From an uncultured Candidatus Saccharibacteria bacterium (GTDB lineage Bacteria > Patescibacteriota > Minisyncoccia > Phycocordibacterales > CAYRGE01), in assembly GCA_964612415.1 (NCBI GenBank), contig CAZTCT010000004.1, positions 1-52,733 on the forward strand: 52,733 bases of DNA, in the 5' to 3' direction. A program made the position numbers and the translations under genes. Of the stretch, positions 39 through 11,396 are shown one piece after another. The stretch's first letter is position 1; each line of letters starts with the position of its first letter. The notes under the pieces are model-generated. The model did no database searches, was not told the DNA's origin, and saw only the letters and a program-made list of their open reading frames with translations.

Positions 39-1427
39 ATGAAAAGATTGATTTTCAGTATCGGAACAGTTTTGTTCGCTGGAGGTGCGATAGCTGTCGG
101 TGCGACAGGAGCGTTCTTCTCGGATACCGAGAATTCTGTAGGCAATACATTTGCCTCAGGAGCTATCGACCTTAAGGTGGACAACGAAAGTTTTTATAAC
201 GGACTTCTGAGCGCCACAACCACATGGGAAGCGACAGATCTCACCATTGAGAAATTCTTCGACTTCAATGACTTGAAGCCTGATGACTACGGCGAGGACA
301 CTATTTCGCTTCACGTAGATACGAACGATGCGTATCTCTGTGCGAATGTCACTCTCACATCCAACAACGACAACGGATGCACAGAGCCGGAAGGGCTCCT
401 AGACCAGACCTGTGACAATCCTGGCGAAGGGCAGGGAGAGCTCGCAAGTAATGTGAACTTCCTCTGGTGGGCAGATGATGGAGACAATGTGCTTGAAAAT
501 GACGAGACAGTCATCACGCAAGGTGCTATCGGCTCGCTCCCACTCAATCAGGCATATCCAATCGCACTTGCGGACTCTGACGAAAATATTTGGACAGGAG
601 TAGGTGGTCCAGTTGTTGGCGGTGGGGACTACTATATCGGTAAAGCATGGTGCTTTGGGACACTGACTCCCGCACCACTTACGCCAGGAGAGTATCCAGA
701 TGGTCCTGCTGGAGACAATGACGGTAATCAGACTGCGGGACAGCCTGAAGATGGAGGTATCCTCTGCGACGGCACAACTCTCGGCAACGAAACACAGACC
801 GACTCATTGACCGCCGATGTTTCTTTTGAAGCGGTACAAGCACGCAACAATCCAAACTTCCAGTGTGATGAGCCTGAGCTCGTGCGTGAATGTACAAATG
901 TAGAAGTGTACGCAGATGCGTTCTATGACGTAAATCAGGGAACTCGCAAGAACGGTACGCCAGTCCTTGCTGCACGCTCAAATGCAAACGCAGCACTTGG
1001 CGCACCGCAGTCACTTGGTACTCCGTATGACAATCCTCCACCTGCTGACAACAACTTCTTCTCGCTCGGATTTAAGAGCCTGCCAGTAGGGACGACTGCT
1101 ACTACTACACCAGGAGGTTCTGTCGTCCTCTCATTCCCAGGCAATGTTGTGGATGGGTCAGGAGCTGACCTCAAACTCTGGGAAGTAACTGGTGGTACCA
1201 ACTATCCTGACGAACTTGTGAAGGTTGAAGTATCCAACTCACTTGCAGGACCATGGACAGTCGTTGCTGCAAGCGTAACGCGCGACGCGGAGATTGATAT
1301 TGCGCCTGTGACATCCGCGAAGTATGTACGCATCACAGACATATCACCACCTGGGCCGTTTGAAGCTACTGCAGATGGATTTGATCTTGATGCGGTACAA
1401 GCACTCAACTGCGTATACCCTCTCTAA
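39..1427 (+). CDS. Secreted TasA/camelysin-family protein with SipW-dependent-type signal peptide and an extra C-terminal beta-sandwich-like domain
   Basis: 462-aa ORF. The N-terminus ...AIAVGATGAFFSDTENSVGNTFASGAIDLKV matches the SipW-cognate signal / TasA N-terminal motif. The core is paralogous to the next ORF (FDFNDLKPDDYG vs FDFDDVKPGDYG; QTDS..DVS..AV). Confidence 0.8.
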   Translation: MKRLIFSIGTVLFAGGAIAVGATGAFFSDTENSVGNTFASGAIDLKVDNESFYNGLLSATTTWEATDLTIEKFFDFNDLKPDDYGEDTISLHVDTNDAYLCANVTLTSNNDNGCTEPEGLLDQTCDNPGEGQGELASNVNFLWWADDGDNVLENDETVITQGAIGSLPLNQAYPIALADSDENIWTGVGGPVVGGGDYYIGKAWCFGTLTPAPLTPGEYPDGPAGDNDGNQTAGQPEDGGILCDGTTLGNETQTDSLTADVSFEAVQARNNPNFQCDEPELVRECTNVEVYADAFYDVNQGTRKNGTPVLAARSNANAALGAPQSLGTPYDNPPPADNNFFSLGFKSLPVGTTATTTPGGSVVLSFPGNVVDGSGADLKLWEVTGGTNYPDELVKVEVSNSLAGPWTVVAASVTRDAEIDIAPVTSAKYVRITDISPPGPFEATADGFDLDAVQALNCVYPL

Positions 1428-1472
1428 ACTAACTTAAGTGTGAGTCCCGCCTCGGCGGGTTAAGACAGACCA

Positions 1473-2519
1473 ATGGACAAAACACACACAACTATTTTTG
1501 CACGAAGCATCCTCGTATTGGGGATGCTTCTGCTTGTCTGGGTGGCGGCGGATGCGCGGGGCGCAGAGCCGGGGATTACCTTTGCGACCAATGGTATTGA
1601 TCTGAAGATTGATAGCACCGCGTTCTACAACGGCTCATTCTTCCCGACATCAAGCTGGTATCTCAAAGACTTGAATCCTTGGACGGATCACTTCTTTGAT
1701 TTTGATGATGTGAAGCCGGGTGACTACGGCAAGACCATCATCAGCATGCATGTGAAGAAGACCGATGCGTGGATGTGTCTTGATTTCAACAATTTGGAAT
1801 CAGAAGACAACGGACAGAACGAGCCAGAATTGCTGGACGACCCTGATGGCGATGCCGATGGAGAGCTTGCGGAGAATCTTTTCTTCTTCGCGTGGCAAGA
1901 TGACGGCGACAACAAGTTTGAAGTAGGGGAGACACCGCTCTTTGGCAACACTCCATTGCCTGCGACGCAAGTACTTGATGACAAGTCATATCCTATCGCT
2001 GACTACGGACATGGCAATTCCTGCCGTGAAGGTACGACACGATATGTCGGCATCGCATGGTGTGCTGGCGCGATGACGGTCAATCTCTCTACTGCGCAGA
2101 TATCGTGCGATGGCTCTGGTATGGACAATGCCGCACAGACCGACTCAATGTCGGTGGATGTGTCTATCCGCGCCGTGCCGACGAAACAAAATCCGAAGTT
2201 CGTGTGTAAGGACACATATACACACGACGACAAGGATGACGACCACAAAGGGGACAAAGATGATGACAAGGGTGGATACGGTGGGCACGGTGATGACGAC
2301 TACGACAAGCCTGACAAGCCAACGCAGCCTGACAAGCCAAATCAACCCACACAACCAACGCAGCCAAGCGAGCCAGATAAGCCGAACCAGCCTTGGCAGC
2401 CCAATCAACCCAGTCAGCCAAACCAGCCGACCCAACCGAGCCAACCAAGCAAGCCGTCAAATAATAGTTGGGGTGGAGATTTCTTTAAGAATTGGTTTTC
2501 TTGGGGAGGGAAGAAATAA
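1473..2519 (+). CDS. TasA-like paralog with ordinary A-x-A signal peptide and a C-terminal xQP/xKP tandem-repeat tail
   Basis: 348-aa ORF that aligns by eye with ORF 39..1427 over about 230 aa (GIDLKIDSTAFYNG, FDFDDVKPGDYG, WQDDGDN, AAQTDSMSVDVSIRAV). The N-terminus has a hydrophobic segment followed by ADARGA. The tail is DKPTQPDKPNQPTQPTQPSEPDKPNQPWQPNQPSQPNQPTQPSQPSKPS. Confidence 0.75.
   Translation: MDKTHTTIFARSILVLGMLLLVWVAADARGAEPGITFATNGIDLKIDSTAFYNGSFFPTSSWYLKDLNPWTDHFFDFDDVKPGDYGKTIISMHVKKTDAWMCLDFNNLESEDNGQNEPELLDDPDGDADGELAENLFFFAWQDDGDNKFEVGETPLFGNTPLPATQVLDDKSYPIADYGHGNSCREGTTRYVGIAWCAGAMTVNLSTAQISCDGSGMDNAAQTDSMSVDVSIRAVPTKQNPKFVCKDTYTHDDKDDDHKGDKDDDKGGYGGHGDDDYDKPDKPTQPDKPNQPTQPTQPSEPDKPNQPWQPNQPSQPNQPTQPSQPSKPSNNSWGGDFFKNWFSWGGKK
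2304..2459 (+). repeat. In-frame 9-nt (3-codon) tandem repeat encoding (D/T/N/S)(K/Q)P units
   Basis: Direct reading shows about 17 consecutive imperfect xQP/xKP triplets (cagcc/aagcc periodicity) inside ORF 1473..2519. Confidence 0.85.
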
Positions 2520-2525
2520 ACTGAT

Positions 2526-3062
2526 ATGAAAATTATCGCAAAAATATTTTACGGAATTTTCATCACACTCTTGGTGGGTGTCGCGCTGCTTTTCCTCGCG
2601 TCACTGCTTCCCATACCTGGCAATGTTGAACTTAAGATAGTGAAGTCAGGTTCTATGGAGCCTGCCATCATGACTGGTGGCATCGTGCTCATCAAGTCAT
2701 CAGATACATATGTTGTCGGAGACATCATCACTTTTGGCGAAGATTCTCGCGGCGAGATTCCTACAACGCACAGAATTATTTCTGTTCGCGAGAGCGGTAC
2801 GCAGACTTTTTACACTACGCAAGGTGATGCCAACGAAGACCCCGACCCACAAGAGACTCCAGGGCGTGAGGTGATAGGCAAAGTGCTCTTCACCATGCCG
2901 TACGCGGGTTTCGTGCTTGATTTTGCGCGCAAGCCACTGGGCTTTGTGCTCCTTATCGGTATCCCCGCGGGCATCATCATCTTAGATGAGCTTGCGCGCA
3001 TTGCGCAGGAGGTCCGAGATATGAGGCGCAAAAAGCGTGAAGCAGAAATAACACACACATGA
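2526..3062 (+). CDS. sipW: Signal peptidase I, SipW / archaeal-ER type (S26B)
   Basis: 178-aa ORF with an N-terminal TM segment, the Ser motif KSGSMEP, the His motif TTHRI, and GDANEDPD. A C-terminal TM segment is followed by a basic tail. It sits between genes that carry SipW-type signals. Confidence 0.85.
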   Translation: MKIIAKIFYGIFITLLVGVALLFLASLLPIPGNVELKIVKSGSMEPAIMTGGIVLIKSSDTYVVGDIITFGEDSRGEIPTTHRIISVRESGTQTFYTTQGDANEDPDPQETPGREVIGKVLFTMPYAGFVLDFARKPLGFVLLIGIPAGIIILDELARIAQEVRDMRRKKREAEITHT

Positions 3063-4330
3063 GCCACTCGTTGTACAAAACGACATATGTGCGTCCCAAC
3101 AAGACTGCCGACATCGCAGTGCGGCATGTGGTAGTGGCTGCGCCTGCTTCGCCAATGCCGAGGAAGAAGGCGAAGCAAAACTCTGGCGCATCACTCGGCA
3201 CATTTTTTGCAGCACTTATTTTGATGTTTGGTGCATACTCGCTTGCCAATGCGAGCTCTACAGTGTCGTACTTTGCAGATACCGAGAGATCTGTCGCCAA
3301 TGTATTGCAAGCGATGGGGGTAGGTCTCAGAGTTGATGACGATAAAGAAATTTTTGTATCACCAGGAGGTATCGGCGTGTTCCCCTCGCAAGTAGCGCTT
3401 GAAGACGAGAGCGGCCCACTGCAGTACAGGATATTTGCGGAGCAATCCAACAATCAGGCGCTTGAGAGCGTGACCGCATTTTGTGAAGCGCTTACCGCGT
3501 CTACCACGTCAGCCTTTTTGCCATACACAGGGCCACTGCTTAGTCTTGCCACAGGTACGACAACAGAGATGGGGGATTGGAGCTACGATGTGACTTTCTC
3601 CGAAGATGCACCGGGTATCATAGATGGCGATACATGTAAGCTTGATATGGTATATCGCGCATGGAGTCTTGGCGCGCAAGAAGGCACTGGCTATCAGGAC
3701 GAAGAGCGATTCTCCGTTATCGTACATGCAGTTGTTGCCGATGCGCGCGTACAAGAAGAGCAGCAGTTTGCACCGCTCGCATTTGTCGCACTCTTTGCGG
3801 AAGATACGGCGACAAGCACGACTGCTACAAGCACCGAAGAGACAGAAGAAGAAACTCCAAAAGAAGATAACGATGGCGGCTCAAACAACGCTCCACTACA
3901 AAGTGGCGGAGGTGGCGTACCTCCAGTAGACCCTGATCCAGATGACGAGACGCTTGATGACAAGAAGGATGATAAAGACACAGAGAAATCTGACACTGCT
4001 ACTACTACGGAAGAGGTTCAAGAAGAATCTGATACCGCGACGACTACAGACGAAGTAGCTGATGAGGAAGATGAGTCTTCGGATGAAGAAGTTGTCTCGT
4101 TTAGTCAGGAGATCGTGACGGACGAAGAAGTAGATGAAACGATAGTAGACGAAGGTGATTCTGGTGACGAGCAGGAACAAGAGCAAGAAGGCGAGACAGA
4201 GAGTGTGCAAGAAGAGACCCCTCCTGCAGATGATGAGACAAACACTCCTGAAGCGACAGATGATACTCCACAAGAGCAGGCACTTCCTCCAGAGCCGCAG
4301 CCGCTAGAAGACCAAGCTCCTGGGGAGTAA
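3059..4330 (+). CDS. SipW-signal protein (TapA-like accessory or minor subunit candidate) with a long hyper-acidic C-terminal tail
   Basis: 423-aa ORF. Its start overlaps the sipW stop (ATGA). A TM segment (LGTFFAALILMFGAYSLA) is followed by SYFADTERSVANVLQA, a SipW-type motif. The last ~170 aa are rich in D/E/T. Confidence 0.7.
   Translation: MSHSLYKTTYVRPNKTADIAVRHVVVAAPASPMPRKKAKQNSGASLGTFFAALILMFGAYSLANASSTVSYFADTERSVANVLQAMGVGLRVDDDKEIFVSPGGIGVFPSQVALEDESGPLQYRIFAEQSNNQALESVTAFCEALTASTTSAFLPYTGPLLSLATGTTTEMGDWSYDVTFSEDAPGIIDGDTCKLDMVYRAWSLGAQEGTGYQDEERFSVIVHAVVADARVQEEQQFAPLAFVALFAEDTATSTTATSTEETEEETPKEDNDGGSNNAPLQSGGGGVPPVDPDPDDETLDDKKDDKDTEKSDTATTTEEVQEESDTATTTDEVADEEDESSDEEVVSFSQEIVTDEEVDETIVDEGDSGDEQEQEQEGETESVQEETPPADDETNTPEATDDTPQEQALPPEPQPLEDQAPGE
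3801..4327 (+). other. Low-complexity, strongly acidic (D/E/T-rich) coding tail
   Basis: The translation reads EDTATSTTATSTEETEEETPKEDNDGG...DEEDESSDEEV...GDEQEQEQEGETES...; GA-rich codon runs also create spurious antisense ORFs. Confidence 0.8.
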
Positions 4331-4387: not shown

Positions 4388-5674
4388 ATGAATGCCGCGA
4401 AAAAGGTGGGCGGGCGCCTGGAGCAACTCCTTCTTTCTGTCAAAGTAGGGGTTTTTCTTGCGTTGCGACAAGTGAGGCGTGGTTCTATTTGGACCAACTT
4501 GCTCATCATTGCCATCATGATGTTCACCTTTTTGAACCTTGTGGTGGTAAGTGGTATCCTCGTCGGACTCATTGAAGGCATCGGACAATCTGTGAAGACC
4601 TATTACACCGGAGATATTATCGTCACGAATCTCAAAAGCCATACATATATTGAGCGAAGTCAGAATGTTATTGATACCATCAAGAAAAATGAAAATGTTA
4701 CCGCACTCTCTGCACGCTACCTTGAGAGTGGGACAGTACAGGAAGATTATAAGCAATTGACCAAGGCCTCCGAAGAACGGCGCATTGTCGGGGCGATATT
4801 TGCGGGGATCGATCCTGTAGAGGAAGATCAATTCTCTGGTCTCTCAAAACTTGTGGTAGAAGGACAGTATCTTGATGAGAATGACTATGATGAAGTGCTC
4901 ATCGGCGGACAGCTACTTTTCAAATATGCGGGCTTTGAATCAGAGGCATTCCCCGTGCTCACGCATACTGAAGTCGGGTCAAAAATACTTATCACCGTGA
5001 ATGGTGCTTCACGAGAAGTGACGGTGAAGGGCGTAGTGCGCAGCAAGGTAGATGAAATTGACCGACGCGTGTTCTTTACCGACAAGCAATTGCGGCAACT
5101 CATTGGACGGTACGATTACAATGTGGATGAGATATCCGTGCGCATCTTACCCGATGCTGATCCCAATCTTGTGAAGCAAGAATTGATTGACACTGGGATG
5201 GACACATATGCGAAAGTGCAGACAAACAAGGATGCTGAGCCGAAATTCGTCCAAGATATCAGACAGACATTCGCGATTCTCGGGAATGCGATTAGTTCTA
5301 TCGGACTTGCGGTAGCAGCGATTACAATATTCATCGTTATCTTCATTAATGCGATTACACGGCGCAAATATATCGGTATTCTCAAAGGTGTAGGAGTGGA
5401 GGGTGTAGCCATAGAGAGCGCATATATTTTCCAAGCGCTCTTCTATGCTGCGGTCGGTACGATACTCGGATGCATTTTGGTCTTTGGATTTCTCAAGCCA
5501 TACTTTGATGCGCATCCGATAGATTTCCCATTTAGCGATGGCATTTTGGTTGCGACAGTAGACGGCACACTCTTGCGCGTGGGCGTACTCTTCATCGCAA
5601 CGCTCATCGCAGGATACCTGCCAGCGCGCATTGTGGTGCGGCAGAATACGCTTGATGCCATCTTGGGCAGGTAA
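4388..5674 (+). CDS. ABC transporter permease, FtsX/MacB-type (4 TM plus a large extracytoplasmic loop)
   Basis: 428-aa ORF with TM1, a soluble loop of about 240 aa, then three C-terminal TMs. This is the typical FtsX-like layout, and the cognate ATPase follows directly. Confidence 0.8.
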   Translation: MNAAKKVGGRLEQLLLSVKVGVFLALRQVRRGSIWTNLLIIAIMMFTFLNLVVVSGILVGLIEGIGQSVKTYYTGDIIVTNLKSHTYIERSQNVIDTIKKNENVTALSARYLESGTVQEDYKQLTKASEERRIVGAIFAGIDPVEEDQFSGLSKLVVEGQYLDENDYDEVLIGGQLLFKYAGFESEAFPVLTHTEVGSKILITVNGASREVTVKGVVRSKVDEIDRRVFFTDKQLRQLIGRYDYNVDEISVRILPDADPNLVKQELIDTGMDTYAKVQTNKDAEPKFVQDIRQTFAILGNAISSIGLAVAAITIFIVIFINAITRRKYIGILKGVGVEGVAIESAYIFQALFYAAVGTILGCILVFGFLKPYFDAHPIDFPFSDGILVATVDGTLLRVGVLFIATLIAGYLPARIVVRQNTLDAILGR

Positions 5675-5681
5675 ATTACAT

Positions 5682-6365
5682 ATGATCAAAGCAAAAGAAA
5701 TAAAAAAAGAGTTCAAATCAGGAGGAGATACTATCTCTGTGCTCAATGGCATTGACCTTTCCATTGAGGCGGGAGAATTCGTGGCGATCATGGGCCCGTC
5801 AGGGGCGGGGAAGAGCACATTCCTCTATCAGCTTGGACTGCTCGATCGACCGACATCTGGATCCATTGTGATTAACGGTGTTTCAACAGAAGGCCTCTCA
5901 AATACGGATCGCACCAAGTTTCGCCTAGACAATCTTGGCTTTGTGTTCCAAGACTATGCGCTCTTGCCGGAGCTCACTGCCGCAGAAAATATTTACATAA
6001 CACTTCTCATGAAAGGGGAGTCTCGCAAAGCTGCCTTCAAAAAAGCATGTGATGTGCTCGCGGAAGTCGGGCTTGATCATCGGGTAGGCAACTTGCCATC
6101 GCAACTCTCTGGGGGTGAGCAGCAGCGTGTGTCGCTTGCGCGTGCGGTGGTACACAATCCTGCTATTTTGTACGCGGACGAACCAACAGCGAGCCTTGAT
6201 TCGGAACGCTCTACGGAGATCATGGGGCTCTTCAAAAAGCTCAATGGCAAAGGGCAGACGATTGTCATGGTTACTCACGAACCAGAATATGCCGTGTACG
6301 CGAAGCGCCTGGTACAGATCAAAGACGGACAAATACTCTCTGACGAACGGCAAAAAGGCGTGTAG
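5682..6365 (+). CDS. ABC transporter ATP-binding protein (MacB/LolD-like)
   Basis: Walker A GPSGAGKST, signature LSGGEQQRVSLARA, Walker B ILYADEPT and the H-loop VTHE. I moved the start to the ATG at 5682 (MIKAKEIKKEF), 5 nt after the permease stop. Confidence 0.9.
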   Translation: MIKAKEIKKEFKSGGDTISVLNGIDLSIEAGEFVAIMGPSGAGKSTFLYQLGLLDRPTSGSIVINGVSTEGLSNTDRTKFRLDNLGFVFQDYALLPELTAAENIYITLLMKGESRKAAFKKACDVLAEVGLDHRVGNLPSQLSGGEQQRVSLARAVVHNPAILYADEPTASLDSERSTEIMGLFKKLNGKGQTIVMVTHEPEYAVYAKRLVQIKDGQILSDERQKGV

Positions 6366-9275: not shown

Positions 9276-11396
9276 ATGCTTTCACTTACCGCGGTACTGA
9301 CACTCTTTTTATTGCTTGCGATTTCCAGTGCGACATACTTTCTTGCGGGGCGTATCAAGGTTCCCTATACAGTCCTCCTTGTAGCGGTTGGCACATTCAT
9401 TCTTGTGCCACTCTCCAAGACTCATGGATTCTCATTTTTGAATGATTTTCATTTCACGCCAGAGCTCCTCTTTTATATCTTTTTGCCAATATTACTCTTT
9501 GAGTCGGCATACAACATGAATATCAGACATGTGATGGAGAACATTCGCTCCATCACATTGCTTGCGGTGGTGAGTCTTTTTATATCAGCGACACTCATTG
9601 GCGTAGGTCTCTATTACATTTTCCCGCTCATTGGGATTGAAGTACCGCTTATTGTCACGCTTATCTTTGGGGCGCTCATTTCCGCAACAGACCCAGTGGC
9701 AGTGCTCGCGCTCTTTAAAGACTTTGGCGCTCCACGCCGGCTCTCACTTATATTTGAAGGAGAAAGTATTTTTAACGACGGTACAGCGGTTACACTCTTT
9801 CTTATTGTGCTCGGTGTTGCGCTTGAAGGGTATCATGGGGCTGAGTCAGTTGGCGCCGGGCTGGGGATGTTTGCATTTATGGTTGTGGGGGGTATTTTTG
9901 CCGGGCTTTTTGCAGGAGGTATTTTCGCAAAGGCCATTGGGTATGCTCAAAAGAGCGAATTCGTACAAATCACGCTGACCGTTGTGCTCGCGCACCTCAC
10001 TTTTATTATTACTGACTATATTTCAGAAAATCTTGTCATTTTCGGATTTCACATCCATCTCTCTGCGATCATCGCAACCACCATTGCTTCAATGGTTTTC
10101 GGCAATTATGGGAGGGCCAAAATTTCACCAAAGGCAGAAGAGTTCGTGGAAAAGTTTTGGGGACAATTTGCCTTCTTTGCCAACTCACTCATTTTCATTC
10201 TTATCGGTCTCATCTTTGCCACACTGCCATTTGATGTGATTGATTTCACATTCCCAGTCGTTATCGCCATCTTGGTCGTCGCGGCGGCACGCGCTCTCTC
10301 TGTTTATCCTGTCATCGGGATTTTGAATAAAACAAAGAGTGAGTCGCATATTCCTCGTACCTGGACACACCTGCTTGCGTGGGGGAGTCTCCGCGGAGCG
10401 CTTGCAGTGACGATGGTCCTCCTGATACCAGATACACTCACTGTGCCGGGGTGGATATACTCGTTCTCTCCAAAAGAGTTCATTCTTGCGCTTACTATCG
10501 GGTGTATTTTTGCAACGCTTTTTATCAAGGCGACGACCATCAACTGGCTAATGCAAAAGCTCAAGATCGGAGATTTCACAGAACGGGAAAAACTGAGTTA
10601 TGAGGAGGCACGGGCACTTATCTACGCGCACGCACTTGTGCGTTTGGAAGATTTTGTACAGAAAGGGTATGTTGACAGCGCGGTGGCAGAGAAAGTCCTA
10701 GGAGAGTGGAAAAGAAAAGCAAGACAGTTTAAAGAGGCCTCAAAAAAGATCATCGGAGAATCACAAGGAGATGTGTCCGAACAAGTCTTGCGACTGTATG
10801 CAATTGGTATTGAAATCCATCACCTGCGTGAGTTGTATTCATATCATGAGGTTACGGAGAAAGTGTATAAGCGCATTCTTGGAAAGCTTACTATTCAACA
10901 AGAGCAAACAGAGTGCAATGTATTCAACCCAGATACGTCCGTCTATATAGACCGCAAAGATGTTTTTGAGCAGCTTGCAAATGTGGTGAGAAGGATTGCC
11001 ATGCCTAGCCATCTCAAGCAGGGCCCTGAAGAGAAATATATGTATTATCGAGCGCAATTGATCATCTCTCGCAAAGTAGTAAAGGAGCTCTGCTTTTTAG
11101 AAAAGTCACAGATGCATACAATCTTTGGAGAGACTGCGTTTTCTCACACAAAGGCTACTTACGAGAGCTTTCGTGATGGATCAAAGCGCAAGATGGATGA
11201 AGTTTCCAAGCAGCATCCCCAATTAATCCGTGCTCTCTCAGAGAAGCTTGCCTGTCGTGGTATGCAAAAAGTGGAAGAAGCGGTGCTGCAGGATCTTTTG
11301 AGAAAAGGGATGCTTACCCCCAAGACTCACATTGCCATTAGAGATGAGCTTGATAGGGAAGCGGAAGAAAGAGGTCCTACTGTGGGAGAAAAATAA
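9276..11396 (+). CDS. Na+/H+ (cation/proton) antiporter, CPA1/NhaP-type, with a long cytoplasmic C-terminal domain
   Basis: 706-aa ORF. It has about 12 TM segments, with motifs such as FLPILLFESAYNM and SATDPVAV. A soluble, charged tail of about 270 aa follows. Confidence 0.85.
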   Translation: MLSLTAVLTLFLLLAISSATYFLAGRIKVPYTVLLVAVGTFILVPLSKTHGFSFLNDFHFTPELLFYIFLPILLFESAYNMNIRHVMENIRSITLLAVVSLFISATLIGVGLYYIFPLIGIEVPLIVTLIFGALISATDPVAVLALFKDFGAPRRLSLIFEGESIFNDGTAVTLFLIVLGVALEGYHGAESVGAGLGMFAFMVVGGIFAGLFAGGIFAKAIGYAQKSEFVQITLTVVLAHLTFIITDYISENLVIFGFHIHLSAIIATTIASMVFGNYGRAKISPKAEEFVEKFWGQFAFFANSLIFILIGLIFATLPFDVIDFTFPVVIAILVVAAARALSVYPVIGILNKTKSESHIPRTWTHLLAWGSLRGALAVTMVLLIPDTLTVPGWIYSFSPKEFILALTIGCIFATLFIKATTINWLMQKLKIGDFTEREKLSYEEARALIYAHALVRLEDFVQKGYVDSAVAEKVLGEWKRKARQFKEASKKIIGESQGDVSEQVLRLYAIGIEIHHLRELYSYHEVTEKVYKRILGKLTIQQEQTECNVFNPDTSVYIDRKDVFEQLANVVRRIAMPSHLKQGPEEKYMYYRAQLIISRKVVKELCFLEKSQMHTIFGETAFSHTKATYESFRDGSKRKMDEVSKQHPQLIRALSEKLACRGMQKVEEAVLQDLLRKGMLTPKTHIAIRDELDREAEERGPTVGEK

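Follow-up and report, generated by a model that had tools for sequence, protein, structure and literature searches.

A candidate TasA/SipW-type donor-strand-exchange surface fibre encoded by a four-gene cassette of Patescibacteria

Patescibacteria (the Candidate Phyla Radiation, CPR) make up a large share of bacterial diversity, and many of them are thought to be attached to other cells. The known attachment structures of the CPR are mostly type IV pili. The locus described here raises the question of whether such cells may also carry a surface fibre of the TasA type. It consists of four co-directional genes, g1 to g4, which were taken from the list of open reading frames (ORFs) on the + strand of contig CAZTCT010000004.1 (assembly GCA_964612415.1); a single stretch of 52.7 kb of this contig was analysed and is called the window. 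An initial annotation of the window had read the four genes as a fibre and signal peptidase cassette following the logic of TasA and SipW. This idea was supported by profile homology, by the peptidase family, by synteny and by the TapA-like architecture of g4, and from these lines we infer polymerisation. The reading favoured here, with fair but far from complete confidence, is a TasA/SipW-type donor-strand-exchange surface fibre of Patescibacteria, in which g4 is the initiator, g1 is the lectin-bearing shaft subunit and g2 is the terminator or anchor. The cassette is widespread in ultra-small Patescibacteria, and its likely product is an adhesive fibre on the cell surface.

The N-terminal module and the candidate shaft subunit

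Two SipW-type N-terminal motifs were found in the whole window, GATGAFFSDTENSVGNTFASGAIDLKV in g1 and SYFADTERSVANVLQA in g4. The g1 motif, which the initial annotation had called a SipW-cognate N-terminus, was present and aligned to TasA. According to the alignment with the T25-W-A27↓AFNDI context of TasA, cleavage was predicted at T23-G-A25↓F26-F27 in g1 and at T68-V-S70↓Y71-F72 in g4, and the predicted mature N-termini were FFSDTE... and YFADTE..., respectively. The mature N-terminus of TasA is A28 (Roske et al., 2023; PDB 8AUR sequence). Both predicted sites have Phe at P2', as in TasA, and it is this P2' Phe that reportedly leaves TasA poorly suited as a substrate of LepB (PMC10269814).

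The donor strand of TasA comprises residues 28-38, and a delta28-38 deletion results in defective fibres and biofilms (Boehning et al.). The corresponding donor-strand segment of g1 was more conserved than the core, with a top-residue frequency of 0.83 vs 0.72, and the conservation ran about 20 residues beyond the predicted cleavage site. Moreover, residues 21-41 of g1 were disordered in the monomer model, where the predicted local distance difference test (pLDDT) value was <50. A segment that is conserved yet disordered in the monomer is the expected signature of an intermolecular strand.

The same strand module was found in the N-terminal part of g4. g1 and g4 were alike over the N-terminal 48 aa only (BLASTP E 9e-5), and the alignment of the g4 family with the g1 family in hhalign reached 95.9% over 51 columns. 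The g4 family aligned with the TasA family at 85.6%, through the signal and strand only (the N-terminal ~50 columns). By these alignments, g1 and g4 share a TasA N-terminal module, which is composed of the signal peptide, the T-x-A/S↓(F/Y)F context, a donor-strand-like segment and the first beta-strand.

The relation of g1 to TasA was explored further by profile comparison. g1 itself scored 18.7 bits against Pfam PF12389 (Peptidase_M73), for which the threshold is 22.5, and matched through residues 16-51 only. PF12389 was matched at E <= 0.01 by 51 of the 57 close g1 homologues, which are 55-70% identical to g1. All ten of the homologues that were rescanned exceeded 22.5 bits, and in three of them the match extended to profile position 100-129 of 196 (up to position 129 in homologue P0008). 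The TasA family set consisted of 40 Bacillaceae TasA/CalY proteins, and its TasA sequence was identical to PDB 8AUR. The g1 family matched this set in hhalign with a probability of 96.0% and an E value of 4.3e-9 over 75 columns, which run from the signal peptide through the donor-strand segment and the first strand to the (D/N)LKPGD motif.

The AlphaFold2 model of g1 had a mean pLDDT of 86.0. In the Foldseek search with this model, the TasA fibre structure 8aur_A was matched with a probability of 1.00, an E value of 1.3e-3 and a target-normalised template modelling (TM) score of 0.39. The match stood at rank 22 because the two-domain query was dominated by matches of the C-terminal domain; the whole-model search returned mainly C-domain or multi-domain matches, such as PAPP-A and neuropilin. 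In neither the profile nor the structural comparison, which the initial annotation had suggested, was the predicted fold of g1 seen to be unrelated to TasA. The core cysteines C101, C205, C243 and C276 (339-341, 651-653, 765-767 and 864-866) were invariant in the CPR family and present in g2 too, and the Bacillaceae TasA/CalY alignment had zero invariant cysteines. Two further cysteines, C142 and C193 (3482-3484 and 3635-3637), were invariant in the g4 domain. The invariant cysteines of the g1 and g2 cores and the g4 domain suggest disulfide-stabilised extracellular domains.

The extra C-terminal domain of ~180 aa that had been pointed out in g1 is real and well modelled, with pLDDT mostly >90. 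The C-terminal 180 aa matched 3f2z, 3ggl, 3nng, 4a41 and 4zy9 in Foldseek with a probability of 1.00 and target-normalised TM values of 0.44-0.58. Among the 57 close homologues, PF00754 was matched by 21 and PF22633 by 9; g1 itself had no Pfam match to a discoidin-type domain at E <= 1. Relatives of g1 exchange the discoidin-like domain for SpaA-like prealbumin domains (PF19403) or add these to it. According to the structural model, the C-terminus of g1 is probably a discoidin/CBM32-like domain and a candidate glycan-binding module.

The family of g1 is large, and the window copy is an ordinary member of it. Matches to g1 at E <= 1e-3 numbered more than 2371 among the 8000 candidates examined and came mostly from Paceibacteria; the named homologues came from Paceibacteria-type lineages (Kaiser-, Nomura- and Zambryski-bacteria). 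Some of them already bear the NCBI name 'SipW-dependent-type signal peptide-containing protein'. The JGI name 'predicted ribosomally synthesized peptide with SipW-like signal peptide' was rejected, as these are folded proteins of about 460 aa.

Gene order, accessory protein and second paralogue

g3 had been annotated as an archaeal/ER-type signal peptidase, and the motifs SGSMEP, THRI and GDANEDPD were indeed located from residues 41, 81 and 100, respectively. The score of g3 was 110.6 bits against TIGR02228 (archaeal-type signal peptidase I; cut-off 51.85) and 111.2 bits against NF046067 (the Bacillus SipW equivalog; cut-off 190). Because the first cut-off was passed and the second was not reached, g3 was placed in the broader archaeal-type family and not with the SipW equivalog. 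The motifs are of the Ser-His-Asp type (SxSMxP, HR, GDxNxxxD) and do not form a Ser-Lys dyad. The catalytic residues are presumably Ser43, His82 and Asp101/Asp107, by analogy with SipW and Sec11. Hydrophobic (membrane) segments are located at the N- and C-terminus of g3, and its start is preceded by GGGGAGGGAAG as the Shine-Dalgarno context.

The conservation of the gene order was evaluated by searching with the g1 family through a set of genomes, one for each GTDB species; 210 stretches were confirmed and 78 distinct loci were kept. The loci were parsed as stop-to-stop ORFs by hidden Markov models and phmmer. The titled records were mostly metagenome-assembled genomes (MAGs) of Patescibacteria; Paceibacteria and Parcubacteria groups were among them, as were Woese-, Levy- and Curtiss-bacteria of the Microgenomates type. 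Gammaproteobacteria stood in the title of six records, and four were without a phylum; the automatic 'Saccharibacteria' and 'Gammaproteobacteria' labels on many third-party annotation (TPA) records were not trusted. The loci contained 1-4 tandem TasA-like ORFs, with a mode of 3. A same-strand SipW-type peptidase lay 3' of the TasA-like genes in 72/72 loci with sequence left, and the six loci without a peptidase all stopped 0-2 nt past the last TasA-like ORF. The co-occurrence that the initial annotation had proposed to survey across Patescibacteria MAGs was therefore found wherever there was room for it. The order of TasA-like genes, peptidase and g4-type protein is conserved across Patescibacteria. 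A second SipW-type peptidase was observed on the opposite strand, 5' of the TasA-like genes, in three Microgenomates-type loci (L012 3402-4211, L050 2056-2736 and L069 7074-7787 (minus)).

The g4-type domain was found in 48 of these 72 loci, in 25 as a separate ORF directly after the peptidase and in 23 in the same ORF as the peptidase (L004, L006, L007, L010, L014, L016, L018, L024, L027, L029, L030, L034, L045, L046, L051, L053, L057-L059, L061, L062, L078 and L079). The order within the fusions was peptidase, linker, membrane segment, SipW motif and Ig-like (immunoglobulin-like) domain. An N-terminal peptidase domain was also present in 33 of the 152 best g4-family representatives, and gene callers had single proteins for such fusions. 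In a further 18 loci, a long peptidase ORF (at least 300 aa) had no g4-type domain match, and most of those that were inspected were extended by a membrane segment and a SipW-type motif, behind which lay a different passenger. Often this other passenger combined a Pro/Thr linker with a subsequent LTD-like 'EWIELYN' domain. In the Microgenomates-type loci L023, L038, L050, L055, L068, L073 and L075, the LTD-like passenger was observed in place of the g4-type domain, and P0123 carries PF00932. Because this passenger substitutes for the g4-type domain, the conserved element is the strand-like N-terminus and not the passenger. The fusion of a peptidase to its own presumptive substrate is unusual. 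It is topologically sensible, since the C-terminal membrane segment of the peptidase ends inside and is followed by a basic linker, from which the next membrane segment exports the passenger.

The features that had been reported for g4, namely the SipW-type motif, a domain non-homologous to the g1 core and a D/E/T-rich tail, were all present. The protein opens with 43 residues of basic character, after which come a membrane segment at residues 44-63, the SipW motif and strand, an Ig-like domain and the acidic tail, which consists of 21% E, 16% D and 15% T (D+E 37%). The start of g4 was ambiguous within 3059-3157: M1 coincides with the ATGA overlap and includes the basic stretch of 43 residues, and M33 (ATG at 3155) gives a conventional n-region, MPRKKAKQ.... 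No obvious Shine-Dalgarno sequence was seen at M1 or M33. The first 43 residues look like a remnant of a peptidase-passenger linker.

A search with full-length g4 recovered 3 homologues only, probably through swamping of the word index by the acidic tail, and a search with the N-domain (residues 41-256) recovered the family, with 283 representatives at 50% clustering. The AF2 model of g4 had a pLDDT of 86.4 and was an Ig-like beta-sandwich. Its best Foldseek matches were chaperone-usher chaperones and pilins (FimC, FaeE, AggA and FimA), with E values of about 1e-4 and TM values of 0.33-0.51. No TapA structure was among the top 50 Foldseek matches, and neither NCBIfam nor Pfam gave a match to g4. 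The TapA query sequence was verified against PDB 6QAY; its hhalign probability against the g4 family was 8%, and g4 as a TapA homologue was unsupported by sequence. g4 as a divergent TasA-like jelly roll was likewise not supported, as only the N-terminal 50 columns aligned to the g1 and TasA families and the model was an Ig-like sandwich. In TapA, the signal covers residues 1-43, the mature N-terminus is AFHDI and differs little from the AFNDI of TasA, the Ig fold contains one disulfide, and the C-terminus is acidic (Roske et al., 2023). The stop codon of tapA overlaps the start of sipW, and TapA is able to sit only at the beginning of the filament (Roske et al., 2023). g4 was called TapA-like in function, and not a family member, because the architecture matches point by point and the sequence homology does not.

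The paralogy of g1 and g2 claimed in the initial annotation was borne out by BLASTP, with 37% identity and an E value of 3e-45 over g1 residues 3-276. The ordinary A-x-A signal and the xQP-repeat tail attributed to g2 were also present. g2 retained the core and kept the TFATNGIDLKID strand, and had no match to PF12389. After the A-D-A↓R signal end, the sequence of g2 runs nearly straight into ITFATNGIDLKID, the equivalent of TasA 37-47, and the donor-strand segment is absent. The SipW motif was absent in 32/36 g2-type ORFs of related loci. A g2-type ORF lay directly 5' of the peptidase in 27/72 loci, and the motif was found in none of these 27. By sequence, g2 is a naturally occurring counterpart of TasA delta28-38, the mutant with defective fibres. 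The subunit duplication seen at first thus stands insofar as g2 is a paralogue of the g1 core; g2 is not a simple second subunit, and belongs to an orthologous group without the donor-strand segment.

The tail of g2 has a D/K/H-rich stretch and xQP/xKP repeats, behind which comes a basic aromatic C-terminal peptide, and it ends in NNSWGGDFFKNWFSWGGKK. The tails of g2 (window 2208-2516) and of the g2-type proteins varied in composition (D/H/K-rich, G/N/S/T-rich or Pro-rich). They are low-complexity spacers that end in about 20 basic, aromatic and amphipathic-looking residues, e.g. DFFKNWFSWGGKK, GSLLQNLFKKK and AWNNVRNRHS. The sequence of this terminal peptide suggests that it may bind the envelope or a membrane.

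The coordinates of the features are collected in Table 1. The packing of the four genes that had been described, with gaps of 45 nt and 6 nt and an ATGA overlap of g3 and g4 at 3059-3062, was verified together with the ORF coordinates. The contig begins 38 nt 5' of g1, and an independent assembly with an identical g1 (Logan SRR15237813, the 5.3-kb contig L082) likewise stops 84 nt upstream. Relatives usually have one to three additional TasA-like paralogues 5' of the g1 equivalent. With only 38 nt before g1 and further upstream paralogues usual in relatives, the cassette is probably 5'-truncated in the window, and g1 to g4 are probably the 3' part of an operon. The window copy is hence probably incomplete at its 5' end, unlike the self-contained module of the initial annotation. 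Tandem paralogues may cause assembly breaks at the 5' end of the cassette.

Table 1. Features of the cassette and their positions in the window.
Feature	Position (nt)	Strand	Description
g1	39..1427	+	462 aa; TasA-family subunit with SipW-type signal, donor-strand segment, beta-sandwich core and C-terminal discoidin/CBM32-like domain; candidate shaft subunit
g1 residues 25-47 (AFFSDTENSVGNTFASGAIDLKV)	111..179	+	SipW-cognate motif and predicted donor strand; aligns to TasA 27-47
g1 residues 45-280	171..878	+	TasA-like beta-sandwich core; invariant C101, C205, C243, C276
g1 residues 285-462	891..1424	+	Galactose-binding-domain-like (F5/8 type C, CBM32-like); candidate glycan-binding/adhesive module
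Hairpin	1446..1459	+	5-bp GC stem between g1 and g2; judged non-functional
g2	1473..2519	+	348 aa; TasA-like paralogue with ordinary A-x-A signal peptide, without donor-strand segment; candidate terminator/anchor
g3	2526..3062	+	178 aa; archaeal/ER-type (SipW-type) signal peptidase I
g4	3059..4330	+	423 aa; TapA-like accessory protein; candidate fibre initiator
g4 SipW-type motif and strand (residues 70-92)	3266-3334	+	
g4 Ig-like beta-sandwich (residues about 90-224)	3326-3730	+	
g4 acidic D/E/T tail (residues 250-423)	3806-4327	+	

The rest of the window contained ordinary chromosomal genes, including those of a pyruvate kinase, a PBP2-type transpeptidase, an Na/H exchanger, ABC transporters and one tRNA-Asn. 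Two genes at 4388-6365, 57 nt 3' of g4 and on its strand, encode an FtsX-type permease of 428 aa and an ABC ATPase of 244 aa; the ABC ATPase ORF was listed from TTG at 5631, with a 44-nt overlap with the permease gene. This transporter was rejected as a part of the module, as it had no synteny with the cassette across the 78 related loci.

The proposed fibre and its rivals

The favoured mechanism of a donor-strand-exchange fibre would proceed as follows. g3 would cleave g1 after A25 and g4 after S70, by which the N-termini of both proteins would be freed. The freed N-terminus of g4 would supply the donor strand for the first g1, as that of TapA is proposed to do for TasA (Boehning et al.), and nucleation would occur at the membrane, beside the peptidase or attached to it. 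g4 could not accept a strand because its Ig-like domain is already complete. The g1 subunits would then chain head-to-tail by donor-strand exchange, each bearing one discoidin/CBM32-like domain, and the resulting multivalent glycan-binding fibre would attach to host cells or surfaces. g2 would cap the fibre, since it would be able to accept a strand and unable to donate one, and through its proline-rich spacer and its basic aromatic peptide it may also hold the fibre at the envelope. The more specific picture of a self-priming three-part pilus, which would dispense with chaperone, usher and sortase and rely on an initiator that is translated in one chain with the peptidase or coupled to it in translation and is cut free by it, lectin-bearing subunits and a donor-strand-less terminator or tether, is put forward tentatively and may well not hold in full.

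Several results weigh against the fibre. g1 alone falls under the PF12389 threshold and matches the profile through its N-terminal 36 residues only, the profile homology between g1 and TasA ends after about 90 residues, and the TM value of the g1 model to the TasA fibre was only 0.39. Searches of PDB sequences with g1 and with the g1-family profile gave zero matches. The fold matches of the g4 model are generic Ig-like sandwiches, homology between g4 and TapA was not detectable in the hhalign comparison, and the start codon of g4 is uncertain between M1 and M33. The g2 type was missing from 45/72 loci, and the role of g2 as terminator or anchor is pure inference. In the literature searched (open-access papers and bioRxiv), no evidence of a fibre was found for the CPR cassette.

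In the main rival, g1, g2 and g4 are processed by the SipW-type peptidase and do not polymerise, and instead act as envelope lectins or adhesins that are monomeric or arranged in an S-layer-like lattice. The conserved N-terminal segment would then be an element of peptidase recognition or of envelope attachment. The limitation of the TasA homology to the N-terminal third, the weak structural match to the fibre form and the lack of fibre evidence in the searched literature are in line with it, as are a core that is bigger than that of TasA, has four invariant cysteines and is joined to extra lectin-like or SpaA-like domains. However, the conservation of about 20 residues past the cleavage site goes beyond the needs of a peptidase site, and the conserved segment is unstructured in the monomer model. 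The same strand module also occurs on the unrelated g4 family and on varied peptidase-fused passengers. This arrangement parallels an observation on TapA, of whose N-terminal residues only a fraction is needed for biofilm structuring (cited by Boehning et al.). A paralogue class that specifically lacks the strand is hard to explain in the absence of strand exchange. Non-polymerising lectins, and with them a segment that serves recognition or attachment only, are hence considered less likely than the fibre, but the most probable of the rivals.

The second rival retains the fibre and makes g2 an ordinary second shaft subunit, like TasA/CalY of the Bacillus cereus group, with the ratio of g1 to g2 set by the hairpin at 1446-1459. 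g2 does keep the whole core and the TFATNGIDLKID strand, and the GC hairpin CCCGC-CTCG-GCGGG is present between the two genes. The minimum free energy of the hairpin was -12.5 kcal/mol with z = -1.53, and an equal or better value was obtained in 14/200 shuffles. The hairpin had no T-run and was not called by the terminator scan, and in the equivalent intergenic regions of 29 related loci the median z was about 0. The control of paralogue stoichiometry by this hairpin, which the initial annotation had raised, is therefore not upheld, as the hairpin is neither significant nor conserved and has no T-run. Furthermore, the g2-type orthologues are without the equivalent of TasA 28-38, the deletion of which impairs TasA fibres. 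An ordinary second shaft subunit with a ratio-setting hairpin is accordingly rated as distinctly improbable. Locus L018 is an exception: between its g1-type and g2-type genes, at 10707-10760, lies a strong, GC-rich hairpin of 15 bp, with -25.5 kcal/mol and z = -4.3, and none of the other 28 loci examined has a comparable one.

A role of g1 and g2 as secreted metalloproteases of the camelysin type (peptidase M73), in place of a structural one, is suggested only by the Pfam family name of PF12389, Peptidase_M73 camelysin metallo-endopeptidase, and is very hard to sustain, because the match falls mostly on the signal and the strand, the structurally characterised member TasA is a fibre subunit, no protease-like fold was found by Foldseek of the g1 model, and paralogue arrays with a strand-bearing accessory fused to the peptidase misfit an enzyme.

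If the donor-strand fibre is confirmed, a TasA-type appendage in Paceibacteria and Microgenomates would be a second major class of CPR surface appendage, and its glycan-binding domains along the shaft would hint at the way in which it recognises hosts or surfaces. If the three-part pilus holds, ultra-small and probably host-dependent cells would gain a length-controlled glycan-binding attachment organelle that is distinct from type IV pili. To our knowledge, fibre termination in the Bacillus system has no known solution. The peptidase-initiator fusions and the natural 'delta-donor-strand' paralogue would provide ready-made experiments on the starting and stopping of chaperone-free fibres.

Comparison with known systems

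The central idea is a direct consequence of what is known of TasA, and membership of the family is already implicit in public annotation. Patescibacteria are named in one sentence among the phyla with PF12389 (TasA) homologues (Wang et al., 2022, PMC9245690). Among open-access papers and bioRxiv, no description of the CPR cassette was found, nor one of the fusions of peptidase and initiator or of the paralogue without donor strand. The module called uncharacterised at first is thus new to this literature as a cassette, but not in every part, since NCBI already names the signal type and Wang et al. (2022) already list the phylum.

The nearest known system is tapA-sipW-tasA of Bacillus subtilis (PDB 8AUR and 5OF1; TapA 6QAY and 8AIF), in which a dedicated archaeal-type peptidase is likewise encoded with its substrates. 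TasA has the same T-x-A↓xF context as g1 and a homologous N-terminal donor-strand segment. TapA and g4 resemble each other in the strand-like N-terminus, in an Ig-like domain that is complete and contains one Cys pair, and in a tail that is acidic and disordered, and the peptidase and accessory genes overlap from stop to start in Bacillus subtilis as in g3/g4. In contrast, the order here is reversed to subunits, peptidase and accessory, the relatives have 2-4 tandem paralogues, and the core is larger and contains cysteines. The shaft bears a discoidin/CBM32-like domain (SpaA-like in relatives), a class of donor-strand-less paralogues exists, and fusions of peptidase and accessory protein are frequent. 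Moreover, g4 is without TapA homology, g3 scores under the SipW equivalog cut-off, and the host belongs to Patescibacteria and not to Bacillota.

In the Bacillus cereus group, the gene order is taken to be sipW-tasA-capP(bc1280)-calY, and both paralogues presumably keep the SipW-type N-terminus, unlike g2. The subunits there are without lectin-like C-terminal domains, unlike g1. This group has two TasA-family paralogues, one SipW and an extra filament-assembly chaperone factor, according to a preprint (bioRxiv 10.1101/2024.02.27.582368).

Among archaea, the AbpA/AbpB bundling pili of Pyrobaculum calidifontis are built from a subunit with a TasA-like jelly roll, and donor-strand complementation is the means of its polymerisation (Wang et al., 2022, PMC9245690). 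An adjacent larger protein was proposed as the donor of the first strand and perhaps an adhesin (PMC9245690), which resembles the role proposed for g4. The archaeal bundling pilus (ABP) operon is without a dedicated peptidase and a generic signal peptidase I was assumed (PMC9245690), whereas the cassette has g3. It takes the most sensitive methods to detect the relation of this archaeal system to TasA, and the CPR family still matches PF12389. The haloarchaeal Tat-dependent bundling pilus and tafi are multi-subunit strand-donation filaments outside Bacillota; they use Tat export, and neither a SipW-type motif nor a dedicated peptidase was evident in the abstracts of these reports (PMC12337348, PMC11821415).

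Chaperone-usher pili (Fim/Pap) differ from the cassette in having an usher, a periplasmic chaperone and an outer membrane, and no homology is claimed on the weak fold matches of g4. They serve as a working analogy only, in that their specialised initiator/adhesin and terminator subunits are set apart from the shaft subunit by their ability to donate or to accept a strand, and that their Ig-like subunits are joined by N-terminal donor strands.

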